Source: Faecousia sp.
GTDB taxonomy: Bacteria > Bacillota > Clostridia > Oscillospirales > Oscillospiraceae
Length of the DNA stretch: 64,000 bases
Assembly: GCA_045533015.1 (NCBI GenBank)
Contig: JAZSHB010000016.1
Coordinates: 61-64,060, forward strand
Direction: 5' to 3'
Below, piece by piece: positions 23,487 through 41,504 of the stretch (positions are counted from its first letter, which is position 1; every line of letters starts with the position of its first letter). The notes beneath the pieces were generated by a model that searched no databases, was not told where the DNA came from, and was given only the letters and a program-made list of their open reading frames with translations. Both the position numbers and the translations under genes were made by a program.

Positions 23487-23502
23487 AACAAAAATAAAAT
23501 AT

Positions 23503-23687
23503 CGCTGTGAACGGAAATAGTAGCGGTCTTTATCCTCCAGAGAATCCGGGTCGGTGGCTGTGAGCCCGGGTGGTGTCGGAGCGTGAATGTGCGTCCGGGA
23601 GCGAATATACTTTTGAGTGAAAAATGAGAGTGGAACCGCGAGTTGTATGACCCGCCTCTTGTGTCTGGACACAGGGGGCGTTTTTTA
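23503..23687 (+). promoter_or_regulatory. T-box riboswitch (Cys)
   Basis: AGTAG and AGAGA stem I motifs, specifier TGC at 23590-23592, T-box GAGTGGAACCGCG at 23628-23640, terminator at 23653-23686. Confidence 0.92.
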
Positions 23688-29966: not shown

Positions 29967-29980
29967 AAATCCTGTACCGA

Positions 29981-30418
29981 TTACGGTACAGGATAATTAT
30001 TTATTAGGTGCAGGACCGCCTGCCTGTAGCCGTCCAATCCTTGACCCTTGATGGTCTTCACACAGGCAAGCCCGGCGTAAGAGATCTGGCGGAAGGGTTC
30101 CCGGGAATCTACATCGGATATATGGACCTCCACAGCCGGGATGGCAACGGCTTTCAGTGCGTCAAGAATGGCTACAGAGGTATGGGTGTAAGCAGCGGGG
30201 TTAATAACGATACCGTCAACGCAGCCATAGGCGGACTGGATCTTATCCACAAGATCACCTTCGTGATTGGACTGGTACTGTTCAATTTCGATATCAAGCT
30301 CTCTTGCGGTGGTTTCCAGCAGCTGTAACAGGTCGGCAAAGGTCTGTTTGCCGTAAATACCGGGCTCCCGGATACCCAGCATATTGATATTTGGACCGTT
30401 AATTACAAGTATTTTCAT
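29981..30418 (-). CDS. aroQ: Type II 3-dehydroquinate dehydratase
   Basis: NGPNINMLGIREP, QSNHEG, EVHIS. Confidence 0.96.
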   Translation of the reverse strand: MKILVINGPNINMLGIREPGIYGKQTFADLLQLLETTARELDIEIEQYQSNHEGDLVDKIQSAYGCVDGIVINPAAYTHTSVAILDALKAVAIPAVEVHISDVDSREPFRQISYAGLACVKTIKGQGLDGYRQAVLHLINNYPVP

Positions 30419-31648
30419 CTAAACCTCCAAACTAAGCGCCTCGATGATCGCATTTACAACAGCGCCTTCCTCTGTATCGTTACGGATACACAGATCGGCG
30501 AAGGCTGAATACAGTGGTTTTCTGACTTCGTACATTTGCTGCAGCATACCTTTGCGTGAAAGCGGGCGGCCTTCGGTGGGAAGCAGCGTCAGCTCCCGTT
30601 GCAGCCAAATGATCGTGCCGTTCTGGTGTAGCGACGGATAATTTTCCGGTCTTGTAATACAGCCGCCACCGGTGGCGATCACAAGACCGGAGCGCTTTCC
30701 CAGCTGCTGCAGCACTTGCGTTTCCATTTTTCGAAATCCTTCTTCGCCGTCATGAGCGAAAATATCGGCAATAGGTTTGCCTGCAGCATGGATGATCTCA
30801 AGGTCGCTGTCAACAAATTCCTTACCCAGTCGTTGAGCAAGAAGCTTGCCGATGGTAGTCCTGCCGCAGCCGGGCATACCGATGAGAATGATGTTTTCCA
30901 TCTGACTGCGAAGCCGGTCGTGAATATAGGCGATAGCGTCGTCGCTGATCTTCTGATCCAGAAACCATTCGGCGCTTTCTTTAGCCTGGGCGACCAGCAT
31001 CCACAGACCGTTCTGGGCGAGGATCCCACGCTGTTGTGCCTGCTGCAAAAGTGCGGTACGGGCAGGGTTGTAGATCATATCCCAAACAGCTTCCAGCTTG
31101 GGAAACCTGTCCAGATCAACGGGGGAGCAGCCCACATCCGGATACATACCTACCGGCGTTGCGTTTACGATAGCAGACGCATCGGTATGGCGGTGAAGGT
31201 TTTCATAATTGTTTTCGCCCTTGCGGGAAATGACCACCACCTGCGCGCCAAGCGTCTGCATAACGGCAACAGCAGTGACAGCGGCACCACCACTGCCCAG
31301 CACGAGCACCTTTTTGTTATCCAGGGATAAGCCGCTTCTGCTGACCATGGAATGAAAACCGAAGTAGTCGGTGTTGTGACCCACAAGACTGCCGTCCGGA
31401 CGGCGGATAATGGTATTTACCGCCCCCAACTTTTGTGCCTGTTCAGACAGCTCTGCGCAGTAGGGGATGACCGCTTTTTTGTAAGGAATCGTTACATTCA
31501 GACCTGTGAAGCTGCCATTGCGGAAGAATTCGGCAAGCTGCTCGGGCTCTTTTTCAAAGAGCGTGTAGCTGTAGCTGCCCAAATAGCTGTGGATCTGCGC
31601 AGAATAGCTGTGTCCAAGCTTTCTGCCAAGCAAGCCGCACTGCATCAA
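30419..31648 (-). CDS. aroE: Fused shikimate dehydrogenase / shikimate kinase (AroE-AroK)
   Basis: NVTIPYK, NTD, GSGG; C-terminal GMPGCGRT, ATGGG, GRPL. Confidence 0.92.
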   Translation of the reverse strand: MMQCGLLGRKLGHSYSAQIHSYLGSYSYTLFEKEPEQLAEFFRNGSFTGLNVTIPYKKAVIPYCAELSEQAQKLGAVNTIIRRPDGSLVGHNTDYFGFHSMVSRSGLSLDNKKVLVLGSGGAAVTAVAVMQTLGAQVVVISRKGENNYENLHRHTDASAIVNATPVGMYPDVGCSPVDLDRFPKLEAVWDMIYNPARTALLQQAQQRGILAQNGLWMLVAQAKESAEWFLDQKISDDAIAYIHDRLRSQMENIILIGMPGCGRTTIGKLLAQRLGKEFVDSDLEIIHAAGKPIADIFAHDGEEGFRKMETQVLQQLGKRSGLVIATGGGCITRPENYPSLHQNGTIIWLQRELTLLPTEGRPLSRKGMLQQMYEVRKPLYSAFADLCIRNDTEEGAVVNAIIEALSLEV

Positions 31649-32787
31649 ACCACCTCTGTGTAGCTGCCAAGATACTTAAATTGCTCGCCCAGGTCATCCA
31701 GCTCACACATAAGCTGAACAAATTCCTCAGAATAGATGGAAGTCTCCAGGTCAAAGTAGAACATAAACTCAAAATCTCTGTCGGGAATGGGGCGAGACTC
31801 CAATTTGATCACATTGATGCCCAGCACATACATTCTGGCAAGGACCTTATACAGCGCACCGGGCTTGTGGGACAAGATCATCATAATACTGGTCTTGTCA
31901 GAGCCAGGGTAGATCTCCAAATTCTTGCTGATGCAGATAAACCGGGTACGGTTGTTCCCCTCATCCTGGACAGAGGCAGCAAGACAGGTTAGCCCGTACA
32001 GCTCCTCACAGGAACGGCTGGACAGGGCTGCAACATCTTTTCTGCCGGAGCGTGCTACCATGCTTGCGGCAACGGCGGTGTTCTCCACAGGGATGATCTT
32101 AGCATCCGGGAATTTTTTGAGAAATTCGCTGCACTGATTGATTGCTTGTTCATGGGAATAGATCTCGGTGATATTCTCCATGGCAGTACCGGGCAATGCC
32201 AGCAGATTATGGTCGATCTTCAGACGGAAGGTGCGAACGATGGAAAAGTTGTGGTGGATCATCAGATCGTAGACCTTCTTGACAGAGCCTGCGGTAGAAT
32301 TTTCAATGGGCAGGATACCGTATTGACACAGACCTTGCTCAATTGCGGTGAATATGGCGTCAAAGCTTTTGAAGTACATAATGAAAGGCGACTTAAAGAT
32401 TTTCTCACAGGCGATCTGTGCGTAAGCACCTTCCACGCCCTGACAGGCAACCATCGGAGTCTGGGGAAACAGCTTCGGTGTATTTTCGATCGATTCGGTG
32501 ATCTTATTATAAAGCTCCGTGGTTTCGGTATTTCGTTTGCTTTGATAGCTGCGGCTAAGCTCAAAGAGCATGGAGTAGAGGACACGGGTGTAGTTTGCCA
32601 TTTCCGGTCCGGCTTTTTCTGCTACATCCTGAAGCACCTCCCGTTCCCGGGAAGGTACATAAATGGGCAGATTGTTTTCCTTCTTATAGTCGGCGACCTT
32701 GGCGGCGACCTCCATGCGTGCCGTGAACAGACGCACAAGCTCTGTGTCAATGTTATCGATCTCGTTTCTGAGTTCTTTCAGATCCAT
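31645..32787 (-). CDS. pheA: Chorismate mutase / prephenate dehydratase with ACT domain
   Basis: AroQ-type CM N-terminus, PIENSTAG, TRF, LESRP. Confidence 0.94.
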   Translation of the reverse strand: MDLKELRNEIDNIDTELVRLFTARMEVAAKVADYKKENNLPIYVPSREREVLQDVAEKAGPEMANYTRVLYSMLFELSRSYQSKRNTETTELYNKITESIENTPKLFPQTPMVACQGVEGAYAQIACEKIFKSPFIMYFKSFDAIFTAIEQGLCQYGILPIENSTAGSVKKVYDLMIHHNFSIVRTFRLKIDHNLLALPGTAMENITEIYSHEQAINQCSEFLKKFPDAKIIPVENTAVAASMVARSGRKDVAALSSRSCEELYGLTCLAASVQDEGNNRTRFICISKNLEIYPGSDKTSIMMILSHKPGALYKVLARMYVLGINVIKLESRPIPDRDFEFMFYFDLETSIYSEEFVQLMCELDDLGEQFKYLGSYTEVV

Positions 32788-32802
32788 AGTTTGTCACTCC
32801 TT

Positions 32803-33882
32803 TTATCCGATCTTGCAAAGCATGGCATCATAGACGGCAATGGCGGCAGCTGCCTCGATCACGGGGACAGCTCTGGGAACGATACAAGGGTCGTGTCTGC
32901 CCTTGACCACCAGCTCCTGCTGCTCCATGCGCATTAGATCGACGGTCTTTTGCGGATGGGAAATAGAGGGGGTTGGTTTGATAGCGGTCTGGAACACAAG
33001 GGGCATACCGTTTGTGATACCCCCAAGGATACCTCCTGCGTTATTGGTCACAGTTTTTATACTGCCGTCCTTAACGGTATAGGCGTCGTTATTCTGACTT
33101 CCCCGCAGATAGCTGCCGGAAAAGCCGCTGCCAAAATCCAGACCCTTAACTGCAGGAATGCCGTAAACGATCTGGGCGATGCGGCTTTCCATACCACCAA
33201 ACATAAGCTCGCCGATTCCCACGGGAAGCCCGGTCACGATACACTCAATAATACCGCCGACGCTGTCGCCGTCGGCGCGGGCAGCTGCGATTGCCTGTTG
33301 CATCTTTGTGCCGGCATCCGGATTGAGGACCGGGAAATCGTTTGGAATCTTCTGCAGATCGGGGTTGACCCAATCCAGATATACAGGGTCATCTGCAATG
33401 CCGGCGATCACGCAAATGTGTGCGCCAATTTGGATATCCTTCGCTTCCAGCCATTGCTTACACAGCCCTCCTGCAATGCACAAAGGTGCAGTCAGACGAC
33501 CGGAAAAATGCCCACCGCCGGCAGTATCCTGATAGCCGCCGTATTTGACCTGAGCAGTATAATCGGCGTGCCCGGGACGGGGATGATCCTTTAGGGATGC
33601 GTAGTCCCCGGAACGGGTATTGTTGTTGCGGATGATAGCGGTAATAGGGGCACCGCAGGTGTAGCCGTCTACGATACCGGAGAGAAATTCCGGCTTGTCC
33701 TCCTCCCGGCGGGGCGTTGAAAAGTCATTTTGCCCCGGTGCTCTGCGATTAAGAAACTGTTGCAGCTTATCCATATCTACCGGAAGTCCGGCAGGGACTC
33801 CGTCAAGGGTCATACCGATGGCAGCGCCATGGGACTGACCAAATATGGAAAGCTTGATTCGTTCACCGTATGTACTGCTCAT
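32803..33882 (-). CDS. aroC: Chorismate synthase
   Basis: GQSHG, RPGHAD, KPTPSI, GRHDPC. Confidence 0.96.
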   Translation of the reverse strand: MSSTYGERIKLSIFGQSHGAAIGMTLDGVPAGLPVDMDKLQQFLNRRAPGQNDFSTPRREEDKPEFLSGIVDGYTCGAPITAIIRNNNTRSGDYASLKDHPRPGHADYTAQVKYGGYQDTAGGGHFSGRLTAPLCIAGGLCKQWLEAKDIQIGAHICVIAGIADDPVYLDWVNPDLQKIPNDFPVLNPDAGTKMQQAIAAARADGDSVGGIIECIVTGLPVGIGELMFGGMESRIAQIVYGIPAVKGLDFGSGFSGSYLRGSQNNDAYTVKDGSIKTVTNNAGGILGGITNGMPLVFQTAIKPTPSISHPQKTVDLMRMEQQELVVKGRHDPCIVPRAVPVIEAAAAIAVYDAMLCKIG

Positions 33883-35059
33883 AACATCCTCCTAAGCGAC
33901 TGTATTCCTCCCAGAAGGAGGGATAGGATTTAGCAACGCATTGGGCACCGAGAACGGTTATCGGACCGTCCGCGACAGTGGCGGCAATGGCAGCTGCCAT
34001 AGCGATTCTGTGGTCGCCCACAGTATCGATGGTGCAGCTGTGATATTGGGCAGGATATACCGTTAGTTTGTTCTGCTCGACGGTCACTTTTGCGCCGAGC
34101 TTCTCAAGCATCTGGGCAACGGAATCGACCCGGTCGGATTCCTTGAGCCGCAGACGCTGGATGTTTTCAAAAACAGCGCCGCATTTTGCCCCTGCCGTTA
34201 TGGCAAGGATGGGAACAAGGTCCGGAATATCCGCAGCGTCAATGGTAATAAAGCTGCTCATTTTATCAAGAATTCCGGCTGCAGCCCGGTCGCCCTGGGC
34301 AGAAGAAGGATCCAGACCCAATATATCCAGTTTGCTTCCAAGCGCATTTGCTGCCAGGAAGAATGCGCCATTGCTCCAGTCGCCCTCAACAGCCAATTCT
34401 GAAGGTGACTGGAAAGGATAGCTGCCGCAGACACGGAAATCAGAGGTATTTACACCAAAAATCTGCATTACCTTTTGTGTCAAAGCTATATAGGGCTTCG
34501 ATTCTATCTTTCCGGTGACAGTCAATTGGCTTTGTCCAGGAATCAGAGCCATTGCAAACAAAAGCCCCGTGATAAACTGACTGGAAACACTGCCGTCAAT
34601 GGTGTAATTGCCTGGATTGAGCCTTCCTGTACAGCGTATAGTGTCACAGGTGGGTCTGCTCAGCGTACAGCCTTTACGCTCCATTTCCTCCCACAAGGGA
34701 CTGAGGGGACGCTGTGGCAGCCTGCCAGCCATCAAAAAGGTAGCATCCACGCCCAGCGCACCGACAATTGGCAGCATGAACCGTAGTGTAGAGCCGCTTT
34801 CCCGGCAGTTAAGAACAGCCTCTTTGGGGATATCGGTGGCAGGATTCACGCGGTAGCCGGTCTCGGTACGAACGATATCCGTGCCCAAAGCGCGAAGACA
34901 GTCAGCTGTCGCCTCAATGTCCTGGTTGGTTTCAGAACAATGCAGCGTGATCTGTCGGTCTGAAAAAGCAGCACAGATCAGCAGACGGTGCGCCTGGGAT
35001 TTGGAGGGGATGGCAGTGAGCGTTCCCGCGAGCTTGCGGGGAAAGATGGTGATATCCAT
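33863..35059 (-). CDS. aroA: EPSP synthase
   Basis: PSKS, ESGSTLR, SSQF, RLKESDR, DHRIAM. Confidence 0.96.
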   Translation of the reverse strand: MDITIFPRKLAGTLTAIPSKSQAHRLLICAAFSDRQITLHCSETNQDIEATADCLRALGTDIVRTETGYRVNPATDIPKEAVLNCRESGSTLRFMLPIVGALGVDATFLMAGRLPQRPLSPLWEEMERKGCTLSRPTCDTIRCTGRLNPGNYTIDGSVSSQFITGLLFAMALIPGQSQLTVTGKIESKPYIALTQKVMQIFGVNTSDFRVCGSYPFQSPSELAVEGDWSNGAFFLAANALGSKLDILGLDPSSAQGDRAAAGILDKMSSFITIDAADIPDLVPILAITAGAKCGAVFENIQRLRLKESDRVDSVAQMLEKLGAKVTVEQNKLTVYPAQYHSCTIDTVGDHRIAMAAAIAATVADGPITVLGAQCVAKSYPSFWEEYSRLGGCYEQYIR

Positions 35060-35060
35060 T

Positions 35061-36113
35061 TTATAAGCCTGCCTCAATAAAGGATAGTAATTCTTCCACG
35101 GGGGTGGGACGGATCATGCACGATCCGATCTTTTCCGGAATGATAAGGTTGACGGTCTGCCCACTTCTTTTTTTGTCGGACAGAGCGCTGCTATACAGCA
35201 TCTGCGCGGTGTGTTCAGTAGTGCTGGGAAGACCGAACCTGTCGATGACAGTCAAAATTTTCTCGCAGGTGTCCTGATCGCAAATACCCAGGGCGCGACC
35301 GGCTTTACTGACGATCGCCATACCGATGGCAACAGCTTGTCCATGGGAAACGGTAAAGTTGCTGTTGGCTTCGATTCCGTGGCCGATGGTGTGTCCTAAA
35401 TTTAGACGCTGTCGCGCACCGGTGTCAAATTCGTCCTGTGCTACCACATCCCGTTTCAGCGCAACGCAGCGGCTGACGACCATCTCCCGGTCAAAGGTCA
35501 GACCTGTTTTTTGCAGGTGCTCAAAAAGCTCTGAATCAAATAGAATGCCGTACTTGATGATCTCAGCACAGCCGTCCCGGAAAATATCCGGGGGCAGCGT
35601 ATCCAGCGCGTCAATGTCACACAGGACCAAACTGGGTTGATAAAATGCACCGGCAAGATTTTTTCCGGCGGGAAGGTCGATGGCGGTCTTACCGCCCACC
35701 GATGAATCGACCATAGCCAGCAGGGTAGTAGGCAATTGGATGTAGGAAATACCCCGCAGGTATGTCGCTGCGGCAAAGCCTGTCATGTCACCAACTACGC
35801 CGCCGCCCAGAGCAATGAGCAGATCGGACCGGGTCAGACGGTTTTCTGCCAAATAATTCAGTATAGATAAGTATGTGCTGCCATTTTTACTGGCTTCCCC
35901 GGCAGGAAAGACATAGCTGCATACTGTAAAGCCTGCGTTTTTCAGAGAGGTTTCTACCGCTGCGCCGTATATGGGAAAGACATTGCTGTCGCTGATGATC
36001 GCAGCTTTTCCGGTCTTACAATGTGCTGCGGCATACCCGCCAATTTGACTGTGTAGGTCGCTACCGATCAGGACATTATAGTTTTTGGATGCTGTGACGG
36101 CAATGGTGTTCAT
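35061..36113 (-). CDS. aroB: 3-dehydroquinate synthase
   Basis: GGGVVGD, PTTLLAMVDSSVGGKT, NLGHTIGH. Confidence 0.96.
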   Translation of the reverse strand: MNTIAVTASKNYNVLIGSDLHSQIGGYAAAHCKTGKAAIISDSNVFPIYGAAVETSLKNAGFTVCSYVFPAGEASKNGSTYLSILNYLAENRLTRSDLLIALGGGVVGDMTGFAAATYLRGISYIQLPTTLLAMVDSSVGGKTAIDLPAGKNLAGAFYQPSLVLCDIDALDTLPPDIFRDGCAEIIKYGILFDSELFEHLQKTGLTFDREMVVSRCVALKRDVVAQDEFDTGARQRLNLGHTIGHGIEANSNFTVSHGQAVAIGMAIVSKAGRALGICDQDTCEKILTVIDRFGLPSTTEHTAQMLYSSALSDKKRSGQTVNLIIPEKIGSCMIRPTPVEELLSFIEAGL

Positions 36114-36940
36114 CCGTCTACCTCCTCTTTGCGTCTGCGCCCCTCGTCAAGCAGGGCGACAAGACACGCCGCATCATCGTTGGATATAGCATTACGGTAC
36201 TGCTCTAAGCTGTCGATATACAGATCAAGCTCCCGGAGGATGTTTTCCTTGTTTGAAAGAAACAGCTCAGCCCACATTTCAGGATTGAGCCAGGCAACAC
36301 GGGTCAGGTCTTTATAGCTTCCGGCAGAAAAACCTTTGTGGGACAAGGCGGTTGGGGACTTGATAAAAGCATTGCTGATGATGTGGGGCATTTGGGAAGT
36401 GAAGGCGATCATCCGGTCATGCTCCGCAGCAGTGGTAATGGAAAACTGCTTGAAGCCGCAAGGGGAGAGTGCGTCCTTAACACGCTGCAGAAGAAGCGGG
36501 TCATCGAATCTGGGAGGGACCAGCACCATGGGCGCGCCCTGAAACAGATTGGAACGGCTGTATTTGAAGCCGGAGTTGTGTGAGCCTGCCATGGGATGTC
36601 CACCTACAAAGGTAAAGCCATACGCCTCGGCGATGGGGAAACAGGCATCGCAAATGTCCTTTTTAATACCGCAGCAGTCTATGACAAGTGTCGTTTTGGA
36701 AATATGCCGTGCATTTTCTTTCAGCCATGCAACGGATGCAGCAGAATAGATACTAAGGAGAATAAGCTGGCATTGGGGGATCGTGTCCTCATCCATAGGT
36801 CCGTCAACAACACCCGCCAGCTGCGCAAAGGAAAGAATATTTTGATTCCGGTTGAAGGCGAGAACTGTATGTCCGGCTTTCTTATAGGCTCTTGCCAGTG
36901 ACCCGCCGATCAGACCAAGACCCAATATTCCTACAGTCAT
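36110..36940 (-). CDS. tyrA: Prephenate dehydrogenase
   Basis: GLGLIGGS, GGHPMAG, EHD, TRVA. Confidence 0.93.
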   Translation of the reverse strand: MTVGILGLGLIGGSLARAYKKAGHTVLAFNRNQNILSFAQLAGVVDGPMDEDTIPQCQLILLSIYSAASVAWLKENARHISKTTLVIDCCGIKKDICDACFPIAEAYGFTFVGGHPMAGSHNSGFKYSRSNLFQGAPMVLVPPRFDDPLLLQRVKDALSPCGFKQFSITTAAEHDRMIAFTSQMPHIISNAFIKSPTALSHKGFSAGSYKDLTRVAWLNPEMWAELFLSNKENILRELDLYIDSLEQYRNAISNDDAACLVALLDEGRRRKEEVDG

Positions 36941-37938
36941 TGGATCGCCTCCCGGATTTTTTCTACTGTACGGTTGAGCGCAGCAAACTGCGCAGGTGTC
37001 AGAGTCTGGGCACCGTCACAAAGGGCGCAGGCAGGGTTGTTGTGGACCTCTACCATGATGCCGTCTGCTCCACAGGCAGCAGCTGCAGCAGCCATGGAGG
37101 GAACAAGTCCTGCCCGACCGGTTGCGTGACTGGGGTCAACTACCACCGGCAGATGTGTCAGTTCGTGGAGAACCGGCACGGCGGACAGATCCAATGTGTT
37201 GCGGGTGTAGGTCTCGTAAGTGCGGATGCCCCGTTCGCACAGAATGATATTCTCATTGCCTTCGCTCATAATGTATTCGGCGCTCATCAGAAGCTCCTGG
37301 AGGGTGTTGGCAAGACCGCGCTTGAGCAGAATTGGCTTTTTTGTTTTGCCGAGCTCCTGCAGAAGGTCAAAGTTTTGCATATTCCGGGCACCTACCTGGA
37401 TGATATCCACATCCTCGAAAAGCTCCAGCGTGCGGATATTCATGATCTCTGTAATGATCGGCATACCGGTTGCTTTTTTTGCCTCCAGCAGAAGACGCAT
37501 ACCTGCTTCCTTCAGACCCTGGAAGGCGTAGGGAGAGGTGCGGGGCTTAAACGCACCGCCGCGCAGAATGTTCGCGCCGGCTGCCTTCACAGCCTCGGCA
37601 ATGCCTATGATCTGCTCGTGGGATTCAATGGAACAGGGACCTGCGATCATAGCAAAATGTCCGCCGCCGATCTTGATATCACCGATCTGAATGATACTGT
37701 CGTTGGGGTGGAATTTGCGGTTAGCCTGCTTAAAGGGCTCAGAGACCCGCTTTACGCTTTCGACGATCTCCAGGCTGCTGAGCAGCTCGATGTCAACACG
37801 GCTTGTATCACCGATCAGACCCAATACAGTGATCTCCTGACCGGAGGATACATGGACATCAAGGTTCATGTTTTTCAGCCATACCAGCAAATGGTCGATC
37901 TGCTCCGGTGTTGTGTCTCTTTTTAATACAGCGATCAT
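36937..37938 (-). CDS. aroF: DAHP synthase (type I-beta)
   Basis: AGPCS, FKPRTSPY, KRG, DPSH; true start MIAVLK after GGAGG. Confidence 0.95.
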   Translation of the reverse strand: MIAVLKRDTTPEQIDHLLVWLKNMNLDVHVSSGQEITVLGLIGDTSRVDIELLSSLEIVESVKRVSEPFKQANRKFHPNDSIIQIGDIKIGGGHFAMIAGPCSIESHEQIIGIAEAVKAAGANILRGGAFKPRTSPYAFQGLKEAGMRLLLEAKKATGMPIITEIMNIRTLELFEDVDIIQVGARNMQNFDLLQELGKTKKPILLKRGLANTLQELLMSAEYIMSEGNENIILCERGIRTYETYTRNTLDLSAVPVLHELTHLPVVVDPSHATGRAGLVPSMAAAAAACGADGIMVEVHNNPACALCDGAQTLTPAQFAALNRTVEKIREAIQ

Positions 37939-37954
37939 AAAATCAAACCTCCAC

Positions 37955-37992
37955 AAAAAAACAACGCCGCACAGAATTGCATCTGTGCGGCG
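37955..37992 (-). terminator. Attenuator terminator upstream of aroF
   Basis: Minus strand CGCCGCACAGA-tgcaat-TCTGTGCGGCG followed by ttgTTTTTTT. Confidence 0.85.
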
Positions 37993-38040
37993 GGTGAAAA
38001 TACGTTGGTCACGGGAATATCCTTGCAGCACAAAACGCTA

Positions 38041-38109
38041 TTACTTTTTATCAATAAAAAAGTAATAGTAGTTAAAGTAAAACTGTGCATTGCAGGATAC
38101 AGCGATCAT
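38041..38109 (-). CDS. Phe/Tyr-rich leader peptide (22 aa) of the aro operon
   Basis: MIAVSCNAQFYFNYYYFFIDKK*, GAGAGG RBS, 8 of 9 consecutive codons are Phe/Tyr. Confidence 0.88.
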   Translation of the reverse strand: MIAVSCNAQFYFNYYYFFIDKK

Positions 38110-38141
38110 GGTGATAGCCTCTCGATCTTTTTAATAGCGCT

Positions 38142-38170
38142 ATTATAGCACCATGTTTTTTGTTTTTCAA
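38142..38170 (-). promoter_or_regulatory. SigA promoter of the aro leader
   Basis: TTGAAA-17 nt-TATAAT with extended TG on the minus strand. Confidence 0.75.
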
Positions 38171-38240
38171 GGGGGTAATCGTATATTTTTAACTTGCTTT
38201 GTAAAAATCTGCAAAAAGCAGCCGCGGAAGCGGCTGCTTT

Positions 38241-38512
38241 CAGTCTGTCGAAAAACAAGTTTTTCGACAGACTGCCAGAGGTCAAGGAAGCTCCAAAGAC
38301 AAGCAACCCGGGCTCGTCGGCGTACATAGGTACGGTAGAGACCGGGTTGCGCAGTAAGCCAAAATGGCTTGCAAAGCAAACATAGCTTCTTTTTTGGCAG
38401 GCGGGCAATGCCCGCCTCTACAAGGCTTATTGCTTGATCTGTAGCGTGTCTAGAAAATACCCCAAATCGCCCAATATCCATTTTGACGGTTTGGGGCTTT
38501 TTTGACAATCTG
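38241..38512. mobile_element. MITE-like non-autonomous element
   Basis: Imperfect TIRs CAGTCTGTCGAAAAA / TTTTTTGACAATCTG, internal hairpins, flanked by 26-bp direct repeats (38215-38240, 38513-38538). Confidence 0.6.
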
Positions 38513-38543
38513 AAAGCAGCCGCGGAAGCGACTGCTTTCAGAT

Positions 38544-41504
38544 TTATTCGCTCACAATGCTGAAATTCTGCTGACCGGCAAACGCGCCGTTAAAGTAGAT
38601 GCTTATGGTGTAATTTCCGGATGCTTGCGGGATAGAAGGAACATTCAGCTCGCAATAATTGCGATACCACATATTCGTCCATGTGTCAGATGATGTGGAC
38701 GCGTTGACGATGTTTCCGTTCTCATCGCGTATCACGAACAATGTTACGATCGTGTCTGTGGAGGTGCTGTAGGCATGGTTCAGATGTACAAGGAAGGATG
38801 CCTTCTCATCAGCAGCAAATTCAGTTGTATAACTAGAGGATGTCAGATTGTAGCGGTTCCAGTTCTTTTGTGAGGGCGTTCTGCACATTCTGAATTCCAT
38901 GTTCTCGGCGGAGACACCGTATCCGGAGAAAGCCTGGGGTTCAGCCATGGTGCAGGATAGCTTGCCGCCTAAAACGGAGTTGCCATCTGCGGTCTGAAGC
39001 GTAAAGGCGTAGACCGCACCGGGAATCGCGGGGGACACGGTAACAGTTTTTTCGGATTGACAGGAAAGCTCCTGTGCGGCAGAGCCGTCAACTGTATATA
39101 GAAGTATCCAGCCGGCTGTCGGTTCGGCGTCGGCAGTGTTCCATGTTAGGACGATGCGGTTTGGATCAGAGGTATCGGCTGAAAAGTCTGTGACAGTAAT
39201 TGCATTTGCAGCAGCGTAGGCGCGCTCACTGACGCTCATGCCGGCAGCTGTGACCTCGACTGTGTAGCTGGCGCTGTCGTCAATGTTCTCAAAAACAGCG
39301 GCAGTTTCGGTAACCGTGACAGTCTCGTCAAAGCCGTTGTCGCTGTAGCAGCGTACGGTCCAGCTGTCAACAGATGTATCCTTCGGCGCAGACCACGTGG
39401 CGGTGAGGGTTCCGTTGGTACAGCCGGTGATCTGAAGCTCCGTCGGTGTAATGATCTTGCTGGCAGTGAAGGTGATGGTATCCGTGCCGACGATATACAG
39501 GTCATTTTCCGGCAGCAGGGTAAAGGTATACTCACTTCCAACTGTCAGACCGGTAAGGGTCAGCGTGTGACCGGAGAATGCGACTTCCTGTTCTGCTTCC
39601 CCGGAGGCGGCGTACCGGACAGTCCATTGGGTGGAATCCGGACCGTCAATTGTAAACTGAAGGACTGCGCTACCGTCCTCTGCACCGGTAACGGCACTAA
39701 ATTGGACGATATTCGTTTGTGCAGGAGTCTTGTAGGTTGCAGTTGTTGTGCCGGTCAGACGGTGGAAACCGGAGATATCGAGCTTGAAGGTGTAGGCGGT
39801 GTCTGAAGCCAGATCGGTGAAGAGGACCTTACCGTTTGATACTGGATAGGAAAGATGATTTCCGTAGGTATCATAGCGAACCACGCTGAGCATCGATTCG
39901 TCAACAGGTGTGGAGATATGCGCAACCAAATTGCCGTCAGCATTTTCCTCCAGGGTGAAGGAATCGATGGGCTGCAGATAATAGTTTTTATACAGATAGA
40001 AACCGCCAACCAAAAGAGCCAGTACAGCAAGTCCAACAAGCACGCCTGCGATCCAGCGCAGGACGACAGTTCCTTTATCAGCGGGAGACGGCTCATCTTC
40101 GTCCGGAATTTCTGAATCGACAGGGGTTTCTTCGACCTCTTCAGATGTTTCAGAATCTTCGGTGTTTTCCGCTTCCTGTTCGGTCAGTACAGCGTCTTCC
40201 GCAGGCGCTTCCTCAATGGGCAACGGTGCCGGGATTGGCACATCGATCGGTTCAGGCTGTACTACAGGCTCCGGTGCCTGATGGGCGATCAGATCATCAG
40301 CCATACTCAGCATATCAGAGACTTCCTCGGTAACTTCTTCGTAGTCAATTTCTGAAAGCTCAGATTCGGGAACAGTTTCCTCTGAGGTGTCGTCTGCCAG
40401 GAAGGTAAGATTTCCCTCGCTGTCCTCTGTGTAAATGGATTCCTCTGTAATTTCTTGAGCAGTGATCTCCAGGTCATCCTCAGAAACAGCTTCTTCCGGC
40501 TCAGCGGGCGCTTCGGTCTGTTCGCAATCACTGTCAGCATCTGCCTCGAAGACCCCAGTTTCTTCTTCCGGGGAGACTTCAGAAGGTGCTTCCGTTTCAG
40601 CAACCGGAACGATCGGGGTATCGTTTGCACCGTTGCGCTGCATATAAGCGACCAGCGCTTGTCCCATCTCAATAGGATCCTGCCAGCGTGCCTGGGGATC
40701 GGGTGCGCAGGCTTTCAGAATGATCTCTGCCATTTCATAATCTGCGTAGGCAGGTGCCGGGAACTGTTCGGCAGGTGCGGTTTCCGACCGGAAGGGGAGC
40801 ACACCGTCGTTATATGCCTGATAAAGAATAAGACCCAGCGCATAAATATCGATGGTCGTATTGAGCGCGGAAAAGGCATCGGAAATTTCCGGTGCGGTAT
40901 AAGCGCTGCGATACCTGTCAGGCAGGGATGCATATTTCAGCGAATCCAGCTTGATAAAGCCGATATCGCCGATGCGGTACGCATTGTTATCTGTGATATA
41001 GATGTTATCCGGCTTGAGGTCTGCGTACAGATAACCGGCGCGCCGACAGATCGCCAGGGCGGCGCACAGATCGATACCCAGATTCAATGCACCAAGATGG
41101 GTCATGGGATTGCGGCGCAGGTAGCGCTGCAGCGTACTTCTGTACCGGCTTAAAAGGTAAACATCAAAGCCGTTGCCGTCTTCCATAGGTTCGATCTGCC
41201 ATTGCGCGAAGGGGATGAATCCCTCGAGCTGAGACAGCTGCTGCAGAATCTCTGCCTCCTGAACAATGCCATCACAGACGCTCTTAAAATAAGACAGAGC
41301 AGATTCCGTGTTGCTGTACGCACCACTCAGAAGCAGGGCGTCCAGCTGTGTCTGGTTGGCGGGTACTGATATGATCTTTACTATGTATTTATCATCTGCG
41401 TCCTTATCCATTGCAGGACAGCAGCGAACACCGTTGTGGTCGCTGATGGGATCACCCATTCGGAAATTGTCAAGCATTGGCGAGATCAGCTTTGGTTCTG
41501 ACAC
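38544..41504 (-). CDS. Atypical Hanks-type membrane Ser/Thr kinase with extracellular Fn3-like repeats
   Basis: VKI, YADLKPDNI, DIG, APE, DIYALG; acidic linker, one TM, beta-rich ectodomain. Confidence 0.8.
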   Translation of the reverse strand: MSEPKLISPMLDNFRMGDPISDHNGVRCCPAMDKDADDKYIVKIISVPANQTQLDALLLSGAYSNTESALSYFKSVCDGIVQEAEILQQLSQLEGFIPFAQWQIEPMEDGNGFDVYLLSRYRSTLQRYLRRNPMTHLGALNLGIDLCAALAICRRAGYLYADLKPDNIYITDNNAYRIGDIGFIKLDSLKYASLPDRYRSAYTAPEISDAFSALNTTIDIYALGLILYQAYNDGVLPFRSETAPAEQFPAPAYADYEMAEIILKACAPDPQARWQDPIEMGQALVAYMQRNGANDTPIVPVAETEAPSEVSPEEETGVFEADADSDCEQTEAPAEPEEAVSEDDLEITAQEITEESIYTEDSEGNLTFLADDTSEETVPESELSEIDYEEVTEEVSDMLSMADDLIAHQAPEPVVQPEPIDVPIPAPLPIEEAPAEDAVLTEQEAENTEDSETSEEVEETPVDSEIPDEDEPSPADKGTVVLRWIAGVLVGLAVLALLVGGFYLYKNYYLQPIDSFTLEENADGNLVAHISTPVDESMLSVVRYDTYGNHLSYPVSNGKVLFTDLASDTAYTFKLDISGFHRLTGTTTATYKTPAQTNIVQFSAVTGAEDGSAVLQFTIDGPDSTQWTVRYAASGEAEQEVAFSGHTLTLTGLTVGSEYTFTLLPENDLYIVGTDTITFTASKIITPTELQITGCTNGTLTATWSAPKDTSVDSWTVRCYSDNGFDETVTVTETAAVFENIDDSASYTVEVTAAGMSVSERAYAAANAITVTDFSADTSDPNRIVLTWNTADAEPTAGWILLYTVDGSAAQELSCQSEKTVTVSPAIPGAVYAFTLQTADGNSVLGGKLSCTMAEPQAFSGYGVSAENMEFRMCRTPSQKNWNRYNLTSSSYTTEFAADEKASFLVHLNHAYSTSTDTIVTLFVIRDENGNIVNASTSSDTWTNMWYRNYCELNVPSIPQASGNYTISIYFNGAFAGQQNFSIVSE

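Follow-up and report, generated by a model that had tools for sequence, protein, structure and literature searches.

A predicted leader-peptide attenuator upstream of the aromatic operon of Faecousia sp. and the breadth of such leaders in Clostridia

According to the usual split, T-boxes belong to Bacillota and leader peptides to Proteobacteria. An eight-gene shikimate operon in the window analysed here (the whole stretch of 64,000 nucleotides from a Faecousia sp. contig) raises the question of what kind of control acts on the aromatic pathway in Clostridia. On the minus strand, aroF (DAHP synthase, 36937..37938), the first regulated gene, is followed by tyrA, aroB, aroA, aroC, pheA (chorismate mutase-prephenate dehydratase), an aroE-aroK fusion and aroQ (29981..36940), with intergenic gaps of -20 to +15 nt and a terminator closing the operon after aroQ (29969..29994). 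Several of these gene assignments come from matches below curated cut-offs, but the family agrees, and the eight genes are those named in an earlier note on this DNA, PheA and TyrA included. The same note had suggested that an attenuator precedes them. The four-segment model of leader attenuation (pheL, trpL and hisL) is established knowledge, and the elements described below, a leader ORF, three overlapping helices and a terminator, very probably constitute a ribosome-mediated transcription attenuator of this kind for the whole operon.

Each part that had been claimed to lie before aroF on the minus strand (promoter, ribosome-binding site, F/Y-rich leader ORF and terminator) could be located. 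The promoter (38142..38170) is of sigma-A type with an extended -10 (TTGAAA-17-TGn-TATAAT, 11/12 consensus matches), its -35 and -10 columns are close to invariant in 31 aligned loci, and transcription presumably starts near 38135. A Shine-Dalgarno (SD) site, GAGAGG (38118..38123), precedes the leader ORF (38038..38109), which comprises 22 codons and a tandem TAA TAG and is translated (38109..38041) as MIAVSCNAQFYFNYYYFFIDKK, then two stops. Its codons 10-18 (38056..38082) read FYFNYYYFF, the 4 Phe and 4 Tyr in 9 codons reported previously. The intrinsic terminator (37955..37992) is formed by an 11-bp stem (37992..37965), in which segment 3 (37992-37982) pairs with segment 4 (37975-37965), and by a U tract (37964-37955) that ends 17 nt upstream of the aroF start at 37938. 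As in known attenuators, a short RBS-led ORF is placed between the promoter and the first gene, with a terminator inside the leader.

This arrangement appears to be singular in the genome. Among the 541 genes preceded by 100 nt or more of intergenic DNA, aroF alone has an SD-led uORF with at least six Phe/Tyr per 10 codons; an RNA model built from the genus alignment matches solely this locus, and a crude scan of the genome gave no convincing case of a second leader-peptide attenuator. Databases hold little on it. No Rfam family, Phe_leader and Trp_leader included, matches the leader at the gathering score or at E <= 5, nor does it match the covariance models of the Phe_leader, Trp_leader and His_leader families. 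For three leader peptides NCBIfam returned 0 families, and an exact look-up found two of six leader peptides on record under the names hypothetical or uncharacterized. The leader ORF (38109-38097) and aroF (37938-37926) open with an identical 13 nt (MIAV); as a functional feature this was rejected, being private to this genome (the next best shared start among 162 leaders is 7 nt).

The RNA can form all three of the alternative pairings described earlier, with pairing energies in this genome of -26.5 (1:2), -14.9 (2:3) and -21.6 kcal/mol (3:4), and the whole leader folds with z = -5.08, a level that 0/200 shuffles reach. The outer extension of 1:2 in that description (GTATCCT with AGGATAT) had to be rejected as non-conserved, since only the row of this genome has it in the alignments, and the earlier helix map was incomplete in that it missed the helix that is kept best. 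The protector in fact consists of two stacked helices. In the inner one, of 12 bp (38038..38068), the YYYFF codons (38068-38057) pair with the Lys-Lys-stop-stop codons (38049-38038), and the protector overlaps the control codons. In the outer one, the Ala-Gln codons, within segment 1a (38083..38100), pair with segment 2 (38025..38034), which may instead pair with segment 3. Segment 2 starts 21 nt past the last control codon and 9 nt past the first stop base.

Conservation of the helices was measured on 37 aligned leaders. The inner helix is the best conserved (97.7% of cells paired, two pairs with two-sided change), followed by the terminator helix (92.4%, four pairs with two-sided change), and segment 1a, of which only a 9-nt core is common to relatives, has 77% of cells paired. 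For protector and terminator together, 90.1% of cells are paired and two-sided changes number 35 vs 12.9 in shuffled alignments. The 2:3 helix has 88% of cells paired vs 12-70% in slid controls, and its shortfall is one fixed mismatch in 36/37 sequences; a single pair shows two-sided change, which 95/500 shuffles reach as well, and, locus by locus, the best 2:3 duplex is better than shuffles at p <= 0.05 in 17/85 leaders. Thus, of the covarying stems that the earlier note had proposed to look for, protector and terminator do covary but the antiterminator 2:3 does so little: 1:2 and 3:4 are backed by covariation, and 2:3 rests on conservation and position. Because of the built-in mismatch, and because 2:3 is weaker than both of its rivals, OFF is likely to be the default state.

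Within the genus, a F/Y-rich uORF at the same place is kept in 29/31 aroF loci (own locus included), as well as in 9/9 further loci that had been selected for resembling a leader in its 3' half; here, as in every count of conservation or breadth below, kin are not independent. SD sites of the GGAG/GAGG type stand upstream of the uORF in same-genus loci, and Lys-Lys after the aromatic run and Ala-Ala or Ala-Gln before it recur. One of the two exceptions, L031, has its promoter directly before aroF and no leader. The other, L028, has lost the aromatic codons: at L028:1300-1503 (+), promoter, segment 2 and a mismatched terminator are kept around a short ORF without Phe or Tyr. A full-length match to this leader was found in none of 200 other same-genus genomes, and it is read as a one-off decay, a natural loss-of-sensor variant.

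Is the conserved element the peptide or its codons? In a start-blind test, an SD-led ATG was found in frame for 42/49 aromatic windows and in the other two frames for 1 and 0, and the mean aromatic content per 10 codons was 7.5 in frame vs 2.0 and 2.0 in the others. Leader peptides are 16-66 residues long, and Phe, Tyr and Trp interchange freely; such variable length and free exchange imply that codons are conserved here, not a peptide, so the cluster of end-product codons is maintained as codons. Their kind also follows the pathway. A Trp codon is present in the aromatic run in 24/44 trpA-positive vs 12/85 trpA-negative genomes, and, within an even draw of Clostridia, in 9/21 vs 4/34 (Fisher p 0.02, kin not independent); the twelve trpA-negative genomes that retain it include C. 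difficile. The absence of a Trp branch and of leader Trp codons, which had been noted for this locus, agrees with this: trpA was found in 0/15 same-genus genomes, neither trpA nor trpC was found in this genome (85.5% complete), and no same-genus leader has a Trp codon. Conservation, reading frame, helix geometry and the correlation with Trp synthesis all fit, and support, an attenuator of the trpL/pheL type, which was the logic originally claimed.

How such a leader might switch was followed in a folding model, in which the transcript was folded up to the terminator loop with the ribosome footprint removed and the probability that segment 3 is captured served as the readout. With a 12-nt downstream footprint, capture in this leader is ~0.82 for A-site positions at codons 4-19, falls to 0.12 at the stop and is 0.19 without a ribosome. 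A 9-nt footprint raises the stop value to 0.55, and allowing the RNA behind the ribosome to refold places the drop at codons 18-21, with 0.23-0.59 at the stop. In the model, segment 2 would be free when the ribosome stalls on the control codons and covered when it reaches the stop, a geometry that is sensitive to the footprint; antitermination is predicted during the control-codon stall and termination at the stop. Across relatives the ribosome-free state is ambiguous (median capture 0.51 in 34 genus-like leaders). In a wider set, in which 161 of 162 leaders were scored after three duplicates had been dropped, capture is above that of the leader's own shuffled spacer in 139/161, and the switch falls 21-36 nt past the last aromatic codon in 61% of leaders vs 13% of shuffles (mode 27 nt), this 21-36 nt window having been set after the single-locus duplex test had been seen.

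The operon is predicted to switch on when charged tRNA-Phe or tRNA-Tyr is short. On a leader free of ribosomes, the long 1:2 protector would form and the terminator would follow (OFF). With plentiful Phe and Tyr, the ribosome would reach the stop and cover segment 2, or leave and let 1:2 refold, and in both cases the terminator would form (OFF). With Phe or Tyr in short supply, a stall on codons 10-18 would melt the protector, the free segment 2 could capture segment 3, and RNA polymerase would read through into aroF (ON). The timing probably requires that the polymerase pause ahead of segment 3 or 4, which is the least supported step of this scheme.

With regard to what is sensed, we infer that the leader responds to both Phe and Tyr. 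The same attenuator could instead sense one amino acid, most likely Phe, or mainly translation speed, with the Tyr codons kept for the sake of the inner helix, in which the YYYFF codons are paired and nucleotide-fixed. There is a precedent: the aroR leader of C. glutamicum (Neshat et al., 2014, as summarised in PMC11802643), like the present one a Phe/Tyr leader peptide before a DAHP synthase operon in which ribosome stalling raises transcription, responds to Phe and not to Tyr; compared by its description, this actinobacterial leader has three control codons (Phe-Tyr-Phe) vs eight here. The folding model, too, would antiterminate at a stall on any codon from 4 to 19. However, over 162 leaders Tyr codons come close to Phe codons in number (674 vs 790), leaders of other families included, and the operon encodes TyrA as well as PheA. 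A single-amino-acid or speed sensor is therefore rather unlikely, though it is the strongest of the alternatives to be weighed here.

Is a control of this kind peculiar to the genus? In an even draw of 131 Clostridia genomes, 97 had an AroF match (own genome included, one genome unscored). From these, 110 loci were taken, not including every second copy or partial match, and after the own locus and two unrelocated loci had been dropped, the classed set consisted of 107 loci from 92 genomes and 41 families. An aromatic uORF with a terminator precedes aroF at 57 loci, in 55/92 genomes and 26/41 families, a T-box at 12 loci, in 12/92 genomes and 7 families, these figures resting on an AroF query biased to the type with an N-terminal regulatory domain. 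The T-boxes come from an Rfam run on 37 non-leader loci (nine above the gathering score, three below), and no genome of the 92 had T-box and aromatic leader together, the leader loci being screened for T-boxes by a regular expression only. Aromatic uORFs alone were present at 59/107 loci, against an expectation of 3.7 from dinucleotide shuffles; the opposite strand had 5. Among the named carriers are Lachnospiraceae, Ruminococcus, Oscillibacter, Anaerotruncus, Veillonella and C. difficile; outside Clostridia, four leaders were found among the 28 best-scoring loci of a 71-genome draw of the phylum. The view in the earlier note that such an attenuator is unusual for Bacillota is thus wrong for aroF in Clostridia, given the 55 genomes with leaders vs 12 with T-boxes and the published precedents in Bacillota, and the usual split changes for aromatic synthesis in the class that dominates the gut.

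T-boxes have not disappeared from this genome. None is present at its aroF, nine T-box matches lie elsewhere, and T-boxes are kept for other genes, pheS among them. In the window, a T-box match below the gathering score lies ahead of cysS (23498-23662, plus strand). In some genomes aroF is present twice, either with a different leader before each copy or with one copy under a leader and the other inside an operon (L040, L041, L046-type; L266, L269), and some copies adjoin trp genes (G046, G143, G146, G207).

The covariance model built from the genus alignment recovered 9/9 held-out genus leaders, 23/75 leaders of other families and 0/5 loci of the C. difficile type, which it misses; the leaders therefore fall into at least two sequence types. 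The second type can be linked to published transcripts. For C. difficile 630 aroF2, Fuchs et al. (2021; PMC8237595) report a mapped start site, an aromatic-rich sORF of 51 aa and a premature 3' end 38 nt upstream, and list aroF among premature termination events without known riboregulators. The sORF, CD630_18311, is entered there as a hypothetical protein for which a transmembrane helix is predicted, and the main text of the article holds 0 occurrences of the term leader peptide. In our set, locus L143 encodes a peptide identical to this sORF, and the same leader type is found in 8/8 loci at or above 94% AroF identity and in many more distant ones, with a Gly-Tyr-Phe/Tyr-Ser-Ala-Gly-like block around the run. 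The aroF2 leader differs from that of Faecousia in having 51 codons with Trp and an ORF that runs through segment 2, vs 22 codons without Trp, and, since the genus covariance model does not match it, is an equivalent by organisation. When modelled, it is predicted to capture segment 3 at 0.76 through the aromatic run and at 0.02-0.03 at codons 41-43, switching four to five codons past the last aromatic codon. The mapped 3' end shows that the terminator in an equivalent aroF leader is used in vivo in C. difficile; regulation is a separate matter. The leader reading therefore offers a testable explanation of an unexplained premature termination and of a 'hypothetical' small protein in C. difficile.

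These data bear on the other alternatives as well. Residues that recur around the run (Ala-Ala or Ala-Gln, Lys-Lys and the block of the C. difficile type) would be expected if the ribosome were arrested on its nascent peptide, as in TnaC, by some ligand in the exit tunnel such as a free aromatic amino acid. Yet the codons of these residues coincide with helix arms, and a stall induced by the product would, by the geometry of the model, turn a biosynthetic operon on when the product is plentiful, which makes arrest of this kind very improbable. Control of the terminator by a trans factor (a TRAP-like protein, Hfq or a small RNA), with the uORF incidental to a U-rich binding site, is just as improbable. 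The aroF2 5' UTR of C. difficile is indeed enriched with Hfq (log2 fold change 2.2-4.4; PMC8237595), but according to Fuchs et al. the same is common to many terminator-bearing 5' UTRs (PMC8237595), and a plain U-rich site has no need of an aromatic enrichment that is restricted to the SD-led ATG frame. Least credible of all is that the ORF makes a small membrane or otherwise functional peptide, with a terminator that just ends its transcript or dampens the operon: the listing of the C. difficile sORF as hypothetical with a transmembrane helix, and the like names of such peptides in databases, would suit it, but lengths of 16-66 residues, variable ends, free exchange of Phe, Tyr and Trp, the restriction to sites before aroF, a constant spacing between the last aromatic codon and the switch and a Trp content that follows trpA all speak against it.

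The preferred reading, ribosome-mediated attenuation, has close relatives among known systems. The leader resembles E. coli pheL, trpL and hisL in its tandem control codons, in having a protector, a putative antiterminator and a terminator, and in a stop just before segment 2. It differs from the E. coli attenuators in its predicted control of the whole common pathway and both branches, in that its control codons lie inside a 12-bp helix and its segments 2 and 3 are ~30-45 nt apart, and in that no rho was found in the host. Besides aroR, Brewer et al. (2021; PMC8632094) describe uORFC-13-1, an Acholeplasma aroF uORF and predicted attenuator, which likewise has a uORF with Phe codons, a promoter, an RBS and a terminator directly upstream of aroF; compared by description, it is a prediction with 24 representatives from Acholeplasma and environmental DNA and at least one Phe codon. 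For His leaders in Firmicutes, classical attenuators have also been predicted in place of T-boxes (Ashniev et al., 2022, PMC9413887; Naville and Gautheret, 2010, PMC2965389); these predictions cover 17 genomes from three small lineages, vs 26/41 Clostridia families for the aromatic leaders. The mechanism is thus classical with precedents at aroF; its interest lies in the breadth in Clostridia, the link to C. difficile and the question of coupling. A literature search, which reached few subscription papers, found no published account of an aromatic leader family in Clostridia. PMC4833913 cites Lopatovskaya et al. (2010), which may contain an earlier prediction.

Whether transcription and translation run in step in this organism matters for the timing of the switch. 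In this genome, 127/200 predicted terminators (64%) begin no more than 12 nt from a stop codon; for genes of at least 200 codons the fraction is 33/66 before co-directional and 60/76 before convergent genes. The 12-nt cut-off reportedly goes back to Johnson et al. 2020. A short distance from stop to terminator is a published proxy for runaway transcription (PMC7858274). The rho gene was not found in this genome, nor in 20/20 Oscillospirales genomes at least 90% complete, whereas it is present in 2/4 other genomes, among them G115, of the C. difficile type; Fuchs et al. argue that C. difficile is without runaway transcription (PMC8237595). The genome thus bears a B. subtilis-like signature of runaway transcription in an Oscillospirales lineage, which makes the timing needed for the switch uncertain: with no rho found and with terminators that lie close to the stop codon, the switch may depend on a pause and not on tight coupling.

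A candidate, weak pause signal for RNA polymerase may be seen in a U-rich tract (37997..38003, minus strand) ~8 nt before segment 3. A relaxed motif occurs there in 18 of 33 genus-like leaders vs 7.6 expected. The strict TTNTTT motif is absent from this leader and hardly more frequent in the genus than expected (4 vs 2.1), and occurs in 19 of 116 other leaders vs 8.1. In B. subtilis, vmlR offers an example of uORF-dependent attenuation timed by a NusG-dependent pause in a host with runaway transcription (PMC9226507), although vmlR senses antibiotics through a three-codon uORF and not the supply of aminoacyl-tRNA. This precedent and the U-rich tract make a pause checkpoint plausible for the present leader. 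A wider proposal can be offered tentatively, as one that we consider possible but would not bet on: leader attenuation, not the T-box, would be the main control of aromatic synthesis in Clostridia, with codons tuned to Trp synthesis, and in the rho-less, runaway Oscillospirales it would operate uncoupled, with the polymerase paused ahead of segment 3 during the time in which the ribosome clears the leader or remains stalled. This would be a timed occupancy checkpoint and not the E. coli relay in which the ribosome releases the pause. Because polymerase appears to outrun ribosomes in this genome, the leader lends itself as a reporter of the extent to which transcription and translation are coupled in Bacillota.

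The surroundings of the leader hold some further features. Directly upstream of the promoter (38200-38545) lies a dispersed repeat of ~300 nt that contains a perfect palindrome and carries nearly identical hairpins at its two ends; it looks like a MITE- or REP-like element and has about ten further long copies (75-93% identity) on other contigs. Beyond it, 38544-41504 (minus strand) encodes a protein of 986 aa whose N-terminal region resembles Ser/Thr kinases and which also has an acidic linker, a membrane span and a long C-terminal part; it has weak family matches only and is found upstream of aroF in several same-genus loci. At the other end of the window, a full-length OLE RNA (430.9 bits) is present at 106-747 on the plus strand.
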